This document shows positions 2,332 through 41,872 of a stretch of DNA of 64,000 bases, in pieces; the stretch's first letter is position 1; each line of letters opens with the position of its first letter. This stretch comes from an uncultured Alphaproteobacteria bacterium (GTDB lineage: Bacteria > Pseudomonadota > Alphaproteobacteria > Rs-D84). The position numbers were made by a program, and so were the translations under genes. Under the pieces are notes generated by a model that was given only the letters and a program-made list of their open reading frames with translations, had not been told where the DNA came from and did no database searches. Where the stretch lies: the NCBI GenBank assembly GCA_944390125.1, contig CALXOX010000001.1, positions 385,364 through 449,363 of the forward strand, written 5' to 3'.

Positions 2332-3389
<1,058 letters not shown>

Positions 3390-3390
<1 letters not shown>

Positions 3391-3415
3391 AAAAACTGGC
3401 ATTTGCCAGTTTTTT
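3390..3415 (+). terminator. Intrinsic terminator after mreB
   Basis: AAAAAACTGGC-ATTT-GCCAGTTTTTT. Confidence 0.85.
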
Positions 3416-3469
3416 ATTTGGGATTTTTTTGTCTAGATTTTATTGCTTTATATTGCAATAATACTTATT

Positions 3470-3650
3470 GCACTGGACGACTACCAATGCGGGGCGTGAT
3501 AACCTCTGAAGTTGTCGGAAACGACATAAAACATTTACTCCAACTAAGCGTTGCAGGTTGGAGGGTCGTGATATATATGAATAAACGACGCTATTACTTC
3601 AATAGTTATCAACCTCCAACCGCCATTAGTCAGGCGGCGTTTTTATTTGC
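3470..3650 (+). ncRNA. C4/CI-antisense-like structured leader RNA / attenuator (copy 1)
   Basis: P1 GGTTGGAGG(3556-64)/CCTCCAACC(3613-21); P2 GTCGT/ACGAC; P3 GCTATT-ACTTC-AATAGT; loop and bulge complementary to upstream TGAAGT and TGATAAC; terminator overlaps P1; same layout at 27000-27225. Confidence 0.65.
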
Positions 3651-3678
3651 ATTTTTTGCAAAAAATAGGGGAAATACT

Positions 3679-4269
3679 ATGAAGAAAATATTATGTTTAA
3701 TTAGCTTACTTTTGTGTGATGCGGCATTTGCGGTGGGGACACCTACACTCTATTACTGTAATTGTGGGCCTGGTTATGAAAGTACTAATAGCGTTTATAA
3801 TCGTTTGGATGCGTGTAAAAGTTCAAGTGATACAGAATGTATAGTGTCATCTTCGTCAACTGGATTTGTGTACAGAATGTCATATCAGGAAGCAGAACCA
3901 GCCTGTGGTGTGTGTCAGTGTTATTCAACTGTAAATGACTGGGAGTATAGCAGCTATTGTACGGTAAAAAGGACTAATATCAGAGTTTATGATAGCGGTG
4001 AGTTTTCAACAACTTGCAATTATGAATTTGAAACAGACGTTGGGTGTGATGACGGATGTTATATGGAGTGGTATGAACCTCAGGATCGTGATATTGGGTG
4101 TACAAGCTGTCCCAGAGTTTCTGATGATTGGACAGATTGTTATGGAAGAAGCAAAATAGGAAATAAACAAGGAATAGATGGATGCTGGCTTCCTTATTGT
4201 GGTAATATGGACGATGAAACTGGTACTTGGGTTATTACGGAAGACGAAAAATGCTTTTATCAACAGTAA
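3679..4269 (+). CDS. Cys-rich secreted hypothetical protein
   Basis: AGGGG RBS then MKKILCLISLLLCDAAFA signal peptide; about 17 Cys in mature part; the ORF-track start at 3403 runs through the terminator and leader RNA. Confidence 0.8.
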   Translation: MKKILCLISLLLCDAAFAVGTPTLYYCNCGPGYESTNSVYNRLDACKSSSDTECIVSSSSTGFVYRMSYQEAEPACGVCQCYSTVNDWEYSSYCTVKRTNIRVYDSGEFSTTCNYEFETDVGCDDGCYMEWYEPQDRDIGCTSCPRVSDDWTDCYGRSKIGNKQGIDGCWLPYCGNMDDETGTWVITEDEKCFYQQ

Positions 4270-4278
4270 TAATATAAC

Positions 4279-4743
4279 TTATTGATTTCTTTTCTTTCTA
4301 AATTCGTCCAATGAAACAACGCGACCGTTGTCTGGTACTGTGTCTGGTTTTTCTTCCAATGGTAATTCCATATCATTATCTGCAGCGGCCGCACCTTTCG
4401 GATGAAAAGATAGCATAAAGTCAACTGATGGGTCTTTGAATTCAACCAGCGCAGAAAAAGGAACGCGAATAAAGAAAGGTCTGCCGTCAAAGGTCAATTG
4501 TACACCAAATTCTTTATCTGAAACGTGTAAGTTATTATAAGAATACTGTAAAACAATTGTCATTATATCTGGATAACGAATTCTTAAAAAATCAGGCAGA
4601 ACAACGCCAGGGGCACGGGTTTTAAATGTTATATAAAAATGAGTACCATCGCCCAAACCGTTAAATTGTGCGTGTATCAACGCTTCTTTAACTACGGATT
4701 TTAATGCGTTATCTAATAATGCTTGATAATCAATTTTGCTCAT
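4279..4743 (-). CDS. sspB: ClpXP adaptor SspB (alphaproteobacterial type)
   Basis: HFYITFKT...YPDIMTIVLQ...F.DPSV.F and C-terminal VVSLDEFRKK ClpX-binding tail. Confidence 0.9.
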   Translation of the reverse strand: MSKIDYQALLDNALKSVVKEALIHAQFNGLGDGTHFYITFKTRAPGVVLPDFLRIRYPDIMTIVLQYSYNNLHVSDKEFGVQLTFDGRPFFIRVPFSALVEFKDPSVDFMLSFHPKGAAAADNDMELPLEEKPDTVPDNGRVVSLDEFRKKRNQ

Positions 4744-5906: not shown

Positions 5907-5980
5907 TGGAGGCCTGGGTCGGAATCGAACCGGCATACAAGGATTTGCAGTCCTCTGCATAACCACTCTGCCACCAGGCC
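5907..5980 (-). tRNA. tRNA-Cys(GCA)
   Basis: GGCCTGG acceptor stem, GCA anticodon, GGTTCGATTCC T-arm, encoded CCA; terminator hairpin at about 5877-5903. Confidence 0.97.
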
Positions 5981-26858: not shown

Positions 26859-26935
26859 GGATGTTTAGCTCAGTTGATTAGAGCATCTCGTTTACACCGA
26901 GAGGGTCGGGGGTTTGAGTCCCTCAACATCCACCA
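26859..26935 (+). tRNA. tRNA-Val(TAC)
   Basis: GGATGTT/AACATCC acceptor, TCTCG-TTTACAC-CGAGA anticodon arm, CCA end; unusual A19 and T56. Confidence 0.95.
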
Positions 26936-26943
26936 GAGATTTT

Positions 26944-26966
26944 AACCGCCGTATGGCGGTTTTTTG
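26944..26966 (+). terminator. Terminator after tRNA-Val
   Basis: AACCGCC-GTAT-GGCGGTTTTTT. Confidence 0.85.
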
Positions 26967-26999
26967 ATTTGCGTTCCAGTGAAAATATTATATCATACT

Positions 27000-27225
27000 C
27001 TACAGAATCCACAGGGATGTGGTTTCGGGGCTGTAGCAAGCCTATACATGCGGTGCGTAAGCATCGTTATTCTGATGTTTCGGTGCTGGCGCGCCGTTAT
27101 GTCCCCGATGACATTGGTCGGGGAGCCGTTCGTTATAAAAAAGGCAATGCTGAAGACAACGGAATCATTCATGTATTGATTGCTAACTCCCCGACCGCCT
27201 TCCTTTGGCGGTCTAATTTTTATGT
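27000..27225 (+). ncRNA. C4/CI-antisense-like structured leader RNA / attenuator (copy 2)
   Basis: P1 GGTCGGGGAG(27116-25)/CTCCCCGACC(27187-96); P2 CCGTT/AACGG; P3 AATCA-TTCATGTAT-TGATT; loop and bulge complementary to upstream ATACATG and TAGCAA; terminator GACCGCC/GGCGGTC overlaps P1. Confidence 0.65.
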
Positions 27226-27236
27226 TGGGGGATAAT

Positions 27237-28139
27237 ATGAAAATCTCGATAATAATACCGGCATATAACTGTGAAAAGTATATATGTCAGACTTTAGATT
27301 GCATCAGAACGCAGACTTTTCCTCAGAAAGATATGGAAATAATAGTCTTTCTTGATGGTTGTACTGATTCTACGCCATTTGAGGTTGTTGAGTATTCAAA
27401 GAAACATCCAGATATGAATATAAAATTATTGAAAGTTGATGAAAAGCAAGGACCATCAAATGCTAGGAATTGCGCTTTACAATGTGCAACTGGTGAATAC
27501 GTTCATTTTTTTGACGCAGATGATGTTATAAATCAAGATTTTTATAGATTACTATATGAGGCCGCAAAGAAAGCGGATTCAGATATCGCAGTGGCTTCAT
27601 TCAGTCATGAACGCTTCCCAAATGATAGTGTCATCTTTACCGATTCGATAGTTTTATCAGTTCCTCAAGATAAATTGAATGCCACAAAAGTTGATAAGCA
27701 TGGGTTTTCATGGCGATATTTAATAAAGCGAAACTTTTTACAAAAGAATCATTTTCTGTTTCCAACTGATATGAAATATTGTGAAGATATGCTGATAATG
27801 ACGAAATGTATATATTACAGCAATAACATTGTGTTAGTGCCAAAGGCTTTGTATGTATATAAATACAGGCAGAATTCATTACTAACAACACATGAAACAA
27901 AGCGGGAACAAAACACTTACTATAAACAGGCAAAAATACAAGTTCGTGTTTTCTTATCTCAGTTTGATTTATCACCGACAAGAAATTATCATAAACGGAC
28001 GAGATATGTTTTATTTGGGCTTATCCCACTCATACTTACAGTTGATAGAGATGAATGTAATAAAATATATTATCTGCTTGGTATAATTCCGTTATTTAGC
28101 CGTAGAACGAACTATAAGCAAGAACGATTGGTTATTTGA
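27237..28139 (+). CDS. Family 2 glycosyltransferase
   Basis: ISIIIPAYN, DGCTD, GPSNARN, FFDADD, EDM; AT-rich. Confidence 0.93.
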   Translation: MKISIIIPAYNCEKYICQTLDCIRTQTFPQKDMEIIVFLDGCTDSTPFEVVEYSKKHPDMNIKLLKVDEKQGPSNARNCALQCATGEYVHFFDADDVINQDFYRLLYEAAKKADSDIAVASFSHERFPNDSVIFTDSIVLSVPQDKLNATKVDKHGFSWRYLIKRNFLQKNHFLFPTDMKYCEDMLIMTKCIYYSNNIVLVPKALYVYKYRQNSLLTTHETKREQNTYYKQAKIQVRVFLSQFDLSPTRNYHKRTRYVLFGLIPLILTVDRDECNKIYYLLGIIPLFSRRTNYKQERLVI

Positions 28140-40511: not shown

Positions 40512-41105
40512 ATGAAAAATATCAAAAAAGCATTAAAACACATAAAGGATTTGTTGATAAACCCAAAACGCTATTTTACCAAGATTGTGGCAGACGGTAA
40601 TATGGAAGAGTCTATGCTGAAAGCCTTTATTTATGGCTTGTTGGGGGGGTGCTTAGTACTGTTGCTGCGTTTAATCGGTGGTGCGACAATTACGATTGGT
40701 GCGGTGTTTACTGCATTGATAATTGTCCCTGTTTTGGCAGTTGCATTGCTGTTTGTCTTCGGCGGATTGATGATGTTGGTATCTGAAATCACCGGTGGTG
40801 AGCGTGATTGGGAAATTGCTATAAAGGGATTGGCATCTGTATTCTTTATTTATCCAGTAGTACTGGTATTAAATGCGTTGGCGTTTAATTGCACATCTAT
40901 GTGGATTATAAGTTTGATTGTCGATATTTATGTACTGTTCTTGTTCTATAACATTGCGTTATATTGCATGCGTGGTAAGCGCAGCAATGTAATTGTAGTC
41001 ATATCTATTTTGGCATTGTTCCTGATAACGATATATACAACAGATTACAGAATAGGCTGGTTTATGTTAAAGAATGCCAGTGCTACATTAGCGTGCTTGC
41101 TATAA
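40512..41105 (+). CDS. Yip1-like membrane protein
   Basis: L.NP..YF..I start, about 5 TM segments, GG loop. Confidence 0.65.
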   Translation: MKNIKKALKHIKDLLINPKRYFTKIVADGNMEESMLKAFIYGLLGGCLVLLLRLIGGATITIGAVFTALIIVPVLAVALLFVFGGLMMLVSEITGGERDWEIAIKGLASVFFIYPVVLVLNALAFNCTSMWIISLIVDIYVLFLFYNIALYCMRGKRSNVIVVISILALFLITIYTTDYRIGWFMLKNASATLACLL

Positions 41106-41146
41106 GTCAGCAAGACAAAAATAAACCGCGATTTATTCGCGGTTTT

Positions 41147-41872
41147 TTATTGTATTATATTGCCTGTTTCGGCGTTTATTTTTACTTCGCCAACGGTAAT
41201 TATTTTATTTTTATACGTTGGCGCTGCTTGTTGTTTTACTTCTGTGCGCCAATAAACAGAACCGTCAGAAGTACGGACTGCGTACAAGTAATTGTCTGTC
41301 CCGACGACAAACGCGACCTTATTTGATACAATAAAAGGTACCGCTGTGCCTATTTCTGTACACCATTTCTTTGTTCCAGATATTGCGTCTATGCGGCAAA
41401 AAGCATCACCCAGACCACCGGCATAAACACTGCCGTTGTTTATGACCAATGGCGCGACTATATCAACAATAGATGCACCACCTGTCATATTACTTTTACG
41501 GAATACATCTGCAATCCACATAACCTTACGGCTATTGGGAGCAACTTTTATAACTTCACCTGTTGTTAGGCCAGCGTAAACATAGCCACTTTTGCAAATA
41601 GGTTTTTGATTGCTGGCAACAGAATTATTTGTAGGAAACCCACTAAAGATTTTTCTATCACCATCACGAATTACATTTGATGAATCCTGTGTATACGGGC
41701 AGTTAGAGCTGTCTTCTACAGGAATCGTTTCTGGTAGATTAGGTACATCTGTGTTTAAGATTTTTATGTTTTGTGTATCAAAAATTGGGGTGCGGACACC
41801 AGGTAAAATTGGATCGTGTTCCGCACACCCACACAATGCAAGTAAACAACAAAGTGATGCTATCTTTCGCAT
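41147..41872 (-). CDS. PQQ-like beta-propeller lipoprotein (short BamB-like)
   Basis: LCGC lipobox, ILPG.R, G..KW/G.VYW propeller repeats; follows YfgM-like gene, near der. Confidence 0.75.
   Translation of the reverse strand: MRKIASLCCLLALCGCAEHDPILPGVRTPIFDTQNIKILNTDVPNLPETIPVEDSSNCPYTQDSSNVIRDGDRKIFSGFPTNNSVASNQKPICKSGYVYAGLTTGEVIKVAPNSRKVMWIADVFRKSNMTGGASIVDIVAPLVINNGSVYAGGLGDAFCRIDAISGTKKWCTEIGTAVPFIVSNKVAFVVGTDNYLYAVRTSDGSVYWRTEVKQQAAPTYKNKIITVGEVKINAETGNIIQ

Follow-up and report, generated by a model that had tools for sequence, protein, structure and literature searches.

A family of c4-like leader RNAs with copy-specific pairing codes in an uncultured alphaproteobacterium: candidate transcription attenuators of portable gene cassettes

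The 64,000 nucleotides analysed here (the window) belong to the genome of an uncultured alphaproteobacterium of the order Rs-D84 (GenBank assembly GCA_944390125.1, contig CALXOX010000001.1, positions 385,364 to 449,363 of the forward strand). They contain two copies of a structured RNA element which resembles the c4 antisense RNA region of phage P1 and which lies directly in front of a gene. All positions refer to the window unless stated otherwise; copy 1 extends from 3434 to 3645 and copy 2 from 26964 to 27221. The neighbours of copy 1 are the genes for MreB, SspB and RecF, those of copy 2 encode PNPase, a tRNA, an OmpA-like protein and RlmN. Thus both copies are flanked by housekeeping genes, in agreement with a preliminary description of copy 1, made from the sequence, which had seen no prophage genes nearby. 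Each of the motifs listed there for copy 1 could be found at its position in a base-for-base check. A second element near 27000-27225, with the same order of parts and different letters, had also been announced and is our copy 2. The terminator stem CCGCC/GGCGG, which was said to share bases with the 3' strand of the P1 helix, is placed by the terminator scan at 3620-3637, and the two letters CC at 3620-3621 are indeed common to both.

The genome (897 kb in 8 contigs, 39% G+C, 99% complete) contains 21 copies of the element, which were identified with an nhmmer profile built from 9 copies (E<0.01). A covariance model built from 20 copies, named R2, recovers the same 21 copies and one reverse-strand echo. 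Reverse-strand matches of the models at the elements result from the palindromic arrangement of the decoy and the P1 helix, and a weak match of the model R1 at 41059-41159 (22.7 bits) proved to be just the end of a gene followed by a terminator. Of the covarying pair proposed before, the second copy and the covariation are real; the number of copies is 21 and not two, and the advice to build a covariance model and to search the genome with it did lead to further homologues.

In all 21 copies the parts follow each other in the same order: promoter, 5' hairpin, G-run, a site a presented by the loop of a GGG/CC mini-hairpin, a site b, hairpin H, a decoy, a core composed of the helices P1, P2 and P3, and an intrinsic terminator. 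A ribosome-binding site and a gene usually come next. The best -10 hexamer of the promoter scan ends 31-37 nucleotides before site a in 17 of the 21 copies, and the leader sites are separated from the core by about 50-110 nucleotides. For copy 1 a stricter promoter scan returned no promoter on the + strand. Hairpin H is enlarged in copies other than copy 1, some of which carry a G+C-rich hairpin followed by a T-run at this place. A decoy hairpin of 5-11 base pairs was found in 20/21 copies, and the one assigned to C1_141097 looks mis-parsed. The P1 helix occurs in three sequence types, GGTTGGAGG, GTCAGGAGG and GGTCGGGGAG, which are matched by the decoy and the G-run, and P2 comes in a short and a long form. 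An R-C/T-C motif follows the P1 helix in every copy (alignment A1) and is at the same time part of the terminator stem. The terminator itself, with 5-10 base pairs and a T-rich tail, exists in 21/21 copies and starts 2-6 nucleotides (median 4) inside the 3' strand of the P1 helix; this result of a script agrees with the terminator scans for both copies of the window. As a separate observation, the loop of the short-type P2 (approximately GAATATATTGAATAA; 3570-3584 in the window) is near-invariant in 13 copies, in an alignment (A2) in which the other unpaired parts vary, and this loop may be contacted by a protein or by another RNA.

We have little doubt that these elements form a genuine family of structured RNAs. 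The region 3470-3660 folds at -59.6 kcal/mol as compared to -42.5 +/- 4.0 kcal/mol for shuffled sequences (z = -4.26), and the region 27010-27225 folds at -85.8 kcal/mol (z = -4.73); in neither case was any of 200 shuffles as good. In both minimum-free-energy folds the G-run, a and b are paired with the 3' strand of the P1 helix and with the complements a' and b' in the core, the decoy is paired with the 5' strand of the P1 helix, and the terminator is free. Duplexes between leader and core are found in all 21 copies, with energies between -22.6 and -41.2 kcal/mol. In an alignment of 20 cores, which was fitted to the model and hence leans towards structure, 92.6% of the cells are paired and 17 of 22 pairs are changed on both sides, which is equalled by none of 500 shuffles, and slid controls reach 29-55%. 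Because of this leaning, the helix formed by the G-run and a:a' was counted on a plain MAFFT alignment of the 9 short-leader copies. Here 96% of the cells pair, compensatory changes are seen in 5 of 11 pairs, no shuffle out of 500 reaches the covariation score, and slid controls give 28-58%. The four G-run pairs hold in 7, 7, 9 and 9 of the 9 copies (alignment A5). One of them is an invariant G-U pair, which means that the helix exists on the + strand only and therefore in RNA; more G-U pairs are seen in the core alignment. The b:b' and decoy pairings are not in register in alignment A5, and their results rest on scripts. A MAFFT alignment of all 21 cores (A1) combined with RNAalifold recovered only part of the P1 helix and the terminator; it was out of register, so that the model-based realignment was used instead. 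The covariation suspected earlier from two copies is hence found both in the core and in the helix between leader and core, and the two mutually exclusive folds that had been proposed are both kept by compensatory changes. The parts of the two window copies are listed in Table 1.

Table 1. Features of copies 1 and 2 and of the genes behind them (window positions).
Feature	Position	Strand	Basis or remark
Whole cassette (promoter, leader RNA and secreted-protein gene)	3393..4292	+	sits between mreB terminator and sspB stop codon
Copy 1, putative sigma-70-like promoter, weak, TAGATT-17-AATAAT, 8/12	3434..3462	+	own scan; transcription start inferred
Copy 1, 5' hairpin at inferred transcript start	3470..3490	+	paired in minimum-free-energy fold; hairpin here in other copies too
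Copy 1, G-run, within CGGGGC 3490-3495	3491..3494	+	pairs with CUCC of P1-helix 3' strand in leader-paired fold
Copy 1, site a, TGATAAC, loop of small GGG/CC hairpin	3497..3503	+	exact complement of GTTATCA 3605-3611
Copy 1, site b, TGAAGT	3507..3512	+	complement of ACTTCA 3596-3601
Copy 1, hairpin H, TGTCG-GAAA-CGACA	3513..3526	+	minimum-free-energy fold
Copy 1, decoy CTCCAACT, CTCCAAC = 3538-3544	3538..3545	+	pairs with P1-helix 5' strand
Copy 1, c4-like three-way-junction core	3556..3621	+	covariance models: R1 83.3 bits, R2 80.2 bits
Copy 1 core, P1 helix	GGTTGGAGG 3556-3564 with CCTCCAACC 3613-3621	+	
Copy 1 core, P2 (3565-3589)	GTCGT 3565-3569 with ACGAC 3585-3589	+	
Copy 1 core, P3 (3590-3606)	GCTATT 3590-3595 with AATAGT 3601-3606	+	
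Copy 1 core, b' loop and a'	ACTTC 3596-3600; GTTATCA 3605-3611	+	
Copy 1, intrinsic terminator, stem CCGCC...GGCGG 3620-3637, then CGTTTTTATT; T-run 3640-3644	3620..3644	+	terminator scan
Gene after copy 1, 196-aa cysteine-rich protein, signal-peptide-like N terminus	3679..4269	+	likely ribosome-binding site AGGGG 3667-3671
Copy 2, whole element	26964..27221	+	R2 63.2 bits
Copy 2, promoter TTGATT-16-TATTAT	26964-26991	+	
Copy 2, 5' hairpin; G-run	27009-27022; 27027-27030	+	
Copy 2, site a, TAGCAA; site b, ATACATG	27034-27039; 27044-27050	+	
Copy 2, decoy; core	27102-27109; 27116-27196	+	
Copy 2, P1 helix	27116-27125 with 27187-27196	+	
Copy 2, b' CATGTAT; a' TTGCTA	27170-27176; 27180-27185	+	
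Copy 2, terminator	27193-27213, plus T-run	+	terminator scan
Gene after copy 2, family 2 glycosyltransferase	27237..28139	+	Pfam Glycos_transf_2, E = 7.2e-29

The sites a and b can be regarded as an address code. When the codes were tabulated against the downstream genes, as had been recommended, every copy turned out to have its own (a,b) pair: b differs in every copy, and site a varies within a T...AAC frame, with a few recurrences among the 21 copies. The sites were extracted by a script, which failed for C1_130201 and C4_93863, whose sites are visible by eye. Exact matches to the a..b code, with a spacing of up to 40 nucleotides, occur in this genome only in the own leader for 16 of the 21 copies. 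The extra matches of the other five are due to shorter codes (sites of 5 or 6 nucleotides) or to a single stray site and look like chance. As no copy has its full code elsewhere in the genome, there are neither a2/b2 targets as in phage P1 nor a paralogue that could serve as a trigger, which leaves the earlier suggestion of flipping in trans by a paralogous locus without a candidate. Calculated in short windows, cognate duplexes have a mean energy of -14.9 kcal/mol and non-cognate ones of -7.2 +/- 2.8 kcal/mol; the cognate partner is the best one in both directions in 15/21 copies, and 6/21 fail this test. Unconstrained duplex energies of the whole leader with the core half were discarded, as unrelated G+C-rich hairpins dominate them and cognate and non-cognate pairs are not separated. 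A second, related genome (G013) encodes 59 copies. Both sites were found automatically in 54 of them, and the extracted b strings are all distinct.

Judged from sequence and folding, each copy is rather probably the 5' leader of a small cassette and a transcription attenuator with two states, that is two sets of pairings within one transcript. In all 21 copies an intrinsic terminator stands between promoter and gene, the conserved P1 helix shares bases with this terminator, and in 20 of them a decoy hairpin was found that would block the P1 helix. The attenuator would accordingly have three tiers, namely the terminator, the P1 helix as antiterminator, and the decoy together with the G-run, a and b as anti-antiterminator. 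In the OFF state the decoy would hold the 5' strand of the P1 helix and the G-run, a and b would zip onto b', a' and its 3' strand; the terminator stem would be complete and transcription would stop about 35 nucleotides before the start codon, giving a self-paired RNA of roughly 170-230 nucleotides. In the ON state the P1 helix and with it the c4-like fold would form and take the bottom pairs of the terminator, and the polymerase would read into the gene. An equilibrium model of 20 copies gives the free leader a P1-helix probability of 0.00 and a terminator probability of 0.91, which makes OFF the default state. In 18 of the 20 copies with an open reading frame (ORF) the start codon lies 40-57 nucleotides behind the end of the core, too short a distance for a second promoter; of the two exceptions, one (298 nucleotides) is a tandem copy which has no ORF of its own and lies upstream of its partner. 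Contigs of the metatranscriptome run X5 cover 3782-4243 within the gene of copy 1, where carry-over of DNA is possible.

The best known RNA with such a layout is c4 of phage P1, and the likeness pointed out in the preliminary description holds: the order of parts, the a and b targets, the b' loop and the a' junction agree with the annotation of the phage genome (NC_005856). There the order is P1c4 promoter, a1, b1, c4, a2, b2 and icd, and the leader family has the same succession of promoter, a, b and c4. As in C4, the core is a three-way junction in which the loop of the second hairpin contains b' and the strand that returns to the P1 helix contains a', and as in c4-a1b1 a 5' hairpin is directly followed by a mini-hairpin with a in its loop and then by b. 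Also shared are RCC after the P1 helix and the folding of the phage precursor, in which a1:a' and b1:b' are paired in cis. In contrast to the phage, the leader family has no a2/b2 at the ribosome-binding site of the next gene (no second exact code was found near genes), its terminator overlaps the P1 helix where the phage has a2-b2-icd-ant, and it possesses a decoy for the 5' strand of the P1 helix. The setting differs as well, as the leader family precedes cellular or cargo genes and does not serve phage immunity. By its sequence, the family works like the a1b1-c4 part of immI, yet it is not a member of the corresponding Rfam families by their own tests. It is best described as a new variant of the c4/a1b1 design, distantly tied to sRNA-Xcc1 and apparently used as a portable leader switch.

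The CI RNA of phage P4 is a small RNA which is processed from the leader of its operon, pairs with sites on the same transcript and causes premature termination. It is similar to the leader family in pairing within one transcript and in the early termination proposed for the latter, and different in that its sites lie on both sides of CI and that it acts in prophage immunity. Another short leader RNA is IsrK of the Salmonella prophage Gifsy-1 (RF01394), whose model matches the a1b1-plus-terminator part of phage P1 with 35 bits. By analogy, this match shows that a short leader RNA with an a/b hairpin can itself be a product, and some of our leader copies do have a hairpin and a T-run after b. 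At the elements themselves isrK gives no significant match, the sole one (13.9 bits) lying on the tRNA terminator upstream of copy 2.

In a search of the window at gathering scores, two tRNAs are the only Rfam matches. Significant similarity to the elements is shown by a single Rfam family, sRNA-Xcc1 of Xanthomonas (RF02221), which has the same P1-P2-P3 layout and ACC after the P1 helix. Copy 2 scores 39.4 bits as compared to a cut-off of 53 bits, and copy 1 and the short type are unmatched. Genome-wide there are seven long-type matches at E<=1, with 27-50.7 bits and E-values of 1.5e-8 to 6e-3, all of them under the cut-off; these E-values indicate that the long type is a distant relative. Homologues of sRNA-Xcc1 in Xylella (sXF) are, according to passages of PMC12189769, multi-copy, tandem and island-borne and may adjoin C4 and isrK matches. 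In these passages sRNA-Xcc1 is, in contrast to the leader family, treated as a trans-acting small RNA (sRNA), and no upstream a/b sites, decoy or terminator overlap are described for it. For C4, excerpts of Weiss et al. 2016 (PMC5320573) state that it is cut out by RNase P and that a' and b' give target specificity via short variable codes. The same excerpts deal with the Group 1 C4-like sRNAs of Acinetobacter baumannii, which are numerous in one chromosome and c4-shaped, vary in a', are strongly expressed and seem to be processed where the P1 helix begins. That set differs from ours in being gammaproteobacterial and in matching Rfam C4, and the excerpts do not describe its members as leaders which carry a/b sites of their own and a terminator in front of a gene.

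A further parallel in description are the Brt RNAs of Bartonella. As far as the sections of Tu et al. 2016 at hand go (PMC5387305), there are nine abundant RNAs of about 200 nucleotides, which fold stably and end at a terminator-like structure. Every one of them directly precedes a poorly transcribed XRE-type gene without a promoter of its own, a terminator switch was proposed, and the BLAST searches of the authors gave no relatives outside Bartonella. Both groups are alphaproteobacterial, and one copy of our genome as well as the distant locus L090 precede an XRE-like gene, the two being likened by description only. An arrangement of nine clustered copies before XRE genes as in Bartonella was found in none of five genomes re-searched.

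The closest relatives of the RecF protein of the window (up to 81% identical) are from 'Candidatus Enterousia' and uncultured gut Alphaproteobacteria. 'Candidatus Enterousia', which belongs to the order Rs-D84, has genomes of less than 1 Mb and lacks many biosynthetic pathways (passages of PMC12306168). In a survey with R2 the family was present in all 24 genomes sampled from the genus, which contain 2-58 copies apiece, in 12/16 other genomes of the order and, with one genome each, in 18/149 other alphaproteobacterial families, which is about one in eight of the families sampled. The part of this survey that covered the genus and the order gave more than 400 matches. A phylum-wide draw of 150 genomes yielded, besides the genome of the window, a single positive one, which is alphaproteobacterial as well. 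Ten distant loci and one locus of the same genus were inspected, and all have the full design including a/b, decoy and terminator overlap; they precede genes for lipoproteins, a prepilin-like protein, XRE-like regulators (such as L090) and other genes. Since no curated RNA family finds the leader family at threshold, it is invisible to standard annotation. Among the literature matches listed for c4-a1b1, sRNA-Xcc1 and Enterousia, as far as their excerpts go, no description of it occurs, and in the Enterousia genome paper (PMC12306168) the word 'RNA' occurs 0 times.

The cassette of copy 1 (3393-4292) is 99-100% identical to a locus of another species (L014), with flanks of only about 80-89% and a RecF of 76% identity. 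The mreB/sspB site is empty (29-50 bp) in five related species (L008, L009, L011, L013 and L062), TTATT stands on both sides of the insert, and a contig of run X1 has a different insert of 1279 letters between 3392 and 4279. This site looks like an insertion hot spot. No recombinase is encoded within the insert 3393-4292. Two scans of viral contigs with P1-stem patterns gave 39 loci, 5 of which are true copies by R2; the other 34 are not elements by that model, and for the 18-base pattern chance alone could, by our estimate, give about that many viral matches. One of the true copies (L109:12104-12205, an IMG/VR contig; 81 bits) carries an a/b code of its own. It is located about 3 kb beyond P2-like phage tail genes, which encode a sheath, a tape measure and a further tail protein, and a DNA methyltransferase-like gene is nearby. 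The cassette may thus ride on prophages. Given the exchange between species and the viral copies, promoter, leader and gene together behave like a cargo cassette of the moron type. The earlier characterization of the elements as domesticated fits their chromosomal position among housekeeping genes; it has to be qualified in view of the exchange of the 0.9-kb unit between species and of the true copies on 5/39 virus-classed contigs.

Copy-specific codes would insulate the 21-59 copies in a cell from one another. Insulation matters only if free pieces of RNA meet other transcripts, and so each cassette may also feed back on itself in trans. Such pieces could be the core, if RNase P releases it as it does phage P1 c4, or a short leader RNA comparable to IsrK. 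The turnover of the codes bears on the same point. C1_53515, C3_122655 and a copy of genome G117 are close homologues before nearly the same gene. From the P1 helix to the start codon they are near-identical save for b' and a', and b and a carry the matching changes. Differences are found in 16/28 code columns and in 14/154 columns elsewhere (Fisher p = 4.5e-8), and in a second comparison in 16/29 and 24/153 columns (p = 1.7e-5). Such a fast and coordinated turnover would again imply that free RNA pieces meet other transcripts and would favour a self-specific component in trans. Code-specific action in trans is nevertheless a tentative idea, which we hold for possible and not for probable. Somewhat bolder and doubtful is a genome-wide set of orthogonal switches, in which each cassette would bring its own c4-like RNA with a private a/b code, pieces of the leader would act in trans on the same cassette only, possibly in a bistable manner, and the codes would diverge against cross-talk; such a set, widespread in Alphaproteobacteria with small genomes, would also explain the Brt/Trp 'riboswitch' of Bartonella.

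Several results weigh against these proposals. The enrichment of changes in the code columns comes from two comparisons which are not independent, over segments which we delimited ourselves. In G013 the codes are not strictly unique: site a repeats, with 46 distinct forms among 59 copies, and a tandem pair (L188:231-336 and L188:486-590) has the same code. Copies without an ORF and tandem arrays occur, so that not every copy can lead a gene. When pairing of a and b is forbidden in the equilibrium model, the P1-helix probability rises only to a mean of 0.13 (highest 0.65) and that of three central terminator pairs stays at 0.86, a measure which is taken outside the overlap with the P1 helix and cannot reveal a loss of the stem base. 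Occupation of a/b in trans is thus insufficient in silico as the trigger that had been imagined for them; perhaps the decoy must be overcome too, kinetically or by a factor. The assembled contigs of two RNA runs include none over 3394-3744 and are silent on transcription either way. The comparison with the Rfam models C4 and c4-a1b1 that had been called for turned out negative. C4 (RF01695, cut-off 45 bits) has no match at E<=10 in 3380-3700 or 26930-27260 and none at E<=1 genome-wide, and the same holds for c4-a1b1 (RF03163, cut-off 46.7 bits) locally at either copy and genome-wide. As positive controls, phage P1 c4 scores 68.8 bits with the former model and phage P1 51 bits with the latter; R2, in turn, does not detect c4 in phage P1.

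Other explanations were weighed against the attenuator. A cis-only RNA that does not switch would always be terminated and leave an RNA of about 200 nucleotides as product or inert by-product, the gene would get a fixed trickle of read-through, and a and b would merely stabilise the fold. All 20 modelled copies are in the leader-paired fold with the terminator on, and the ORF-less copies and tandem arrays would be natural for such an RNA, as would the Brt RNAs, which passages of PMC5387305 describe as abundant and short with little downstream transcript. It does not account for the P1 helix of 9-12 base pairs, which is kept by compensatory changes though it is never the equilibrium fold, nor for its overlap with the terminator, which is conserved in 21/21 copies and in the distant homologues inspected; and the rapid coordinated turnover of a/a' and b/b' amid a constant rest is unexpected for a purely structural helix. 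We consider this explanation unlikely, without dismissing it. The equilibrium result that blocking a/b alone leaves the model unflipped would suit a sensor, in which the three-way junction binds a protein or a small molecule, which stabilises the P1 helix and prevents termination, a/b being the default lock. An aptamer-like P1 helix competing with a terminator is the geometry of an ON-type riboswitch, and the short-type P2 loop is far more conserved than other unpaired parts. Ligand pockets are not expected to be variable, yet the a' junction strand and the b' loop are the most variable parts of all, and the unrelated downstream genes (secreted proteins, a glycosyltransferase, an XRE-like regulator) suggest no common metabolite, which makes a sensor distinctly improbable.

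The confinement of exact code matches (spacing of up to 40 nucleotides) in this genome to the own leader in 16/21 copies speaks against a classical trans-acting antisense gene of the c4 type with a2/b2 targets on other mRNAs or on incoming phages and plasmids. In addition, the 110 nucleotides after the terminator have no convincing complement (-8 to -21 kcal/mol, unconstrained). Phage P1 c4 does act in this way, the passages of PMC5320573 contain such a proposal for the Acinetobacter C4-like sRNAs, and true copies were seen in 5 of the 39 virus-classed contigs; all the same we give this explanation a very small chance. Least credible of all is a repeat acting as DNA, for example a site of recombination or one end of a miniature mobile element, whose inverted repeats would serve DNA transactions. 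It could appeal to the 0.9-kb unit which is exchanged between species and occupies a hot spot, and to sRNA-Xcc1, which is integron-, transposon- and plasmid-borne according to the title of Chen et al. 2011. Against it stand the invariant and frequent G-U pairs, which exist on one strand only, the orientation to promoter, terminator and gene, which is fixed in all copies, and the position of the element inside the cassette and not at its ends.

If the attenuator with copy-specific codes is correct, the logic of phage P1 immunity, in which an antisense RNA carries short address codes, has become a portable promoter-plus-switch module. This module would move together with accessory genes and would have been amplified to 21-59 copies per genome, in genomes of less than 1 Mb. 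The module would then be a natural library of dozens of insulated RNA-RNA code pairs for the study and engineering of orthogonal regulators. It would also offer a concrete mechanism for the unexplained Brt 'riboswitch' of Bartonella and a handle on how uncultured, host-dependent gut bacteria control many secreted cysteine-rich proteins. If the switches are in addition orthogonal and bistable, the subset that is expressed out of up to about 59 cysteine-rich secreted proteins might vary from cell to cell, and the divergence of the codes would avoid cross-talk as in heteroimmune phages or plasmid incompatibility.

Tandem arrangements were met in both genomes with many copies. One pair (L078, G000:C1:384192-385663) lies just upstream of the start of the window, with cores at genome positions 384452 and 384696. 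Its first copy has no ORF of its own, and its second precedes a 65-aa XRE-like helix-turn-helix ORF; a/a' of the two differ by one compensatory pair, and b/b' are entirely different. At G013:C3:144088-145336 (L179) five copies on one strand are packed into 1.25 kb, and the gaps between them, where ORFs were not scanned for, leave too little space for an ordinary gene. The tRNA genes of the window at 26859-26932 and 5910-5980 score 66 and 58.6 bits, and copy 2 begins right after the former and its terminator (26944-26961).

An ORF with a ribosome-binding site follows 20 of the 21 copies, which gives 19 distinct ORFs; for the twenty-first copy none was found. Fifteen of the 19 encode cysteine-rich proteins with N termini which, judged by eye, look like signal peptides. 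The other four are the family 2 glycosyltransferase behind copy 2, a 65-aa XRE-like protein, a 57-aa membrane protein and a 227-aa protein. As far as placement is concerned, the elements are therefore what had been suggested, a chromosomal family which would control envelope or secreted genes, as most of the 21 copies stand before signal-peptide proteins. For the 196-aa product of copy 1 no Pfam family was matched. A Pfam scan of ten downstream proteins left nine without a family, and one has two domains similar to the C-terminal domain of Ribosomal_L12. The latter is encoded at L069:379-1119 (G000:C1:40221-40961) after copy C1_40103. It has a signal-peptide-like start and a cysteine-rich N-terminal part, and two of its stretches match ribosomal protein L7/L12 in the C-terminal domain (Pfam E = 6.5e-27), a combination which is odd for a secreted protein. 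The cysteine-rich secreted proteins fall into at least two paralogous groups (examples are the window gene at 3679-4269, L071:438-848 and L079:381-1025). Members of group one have about 136-145 aa, an ...AVTKC... start and a CWCK motif; those of group two have about 180-230 aa, and several of them end in ...DCY...C.Y(S/T)(E/N).

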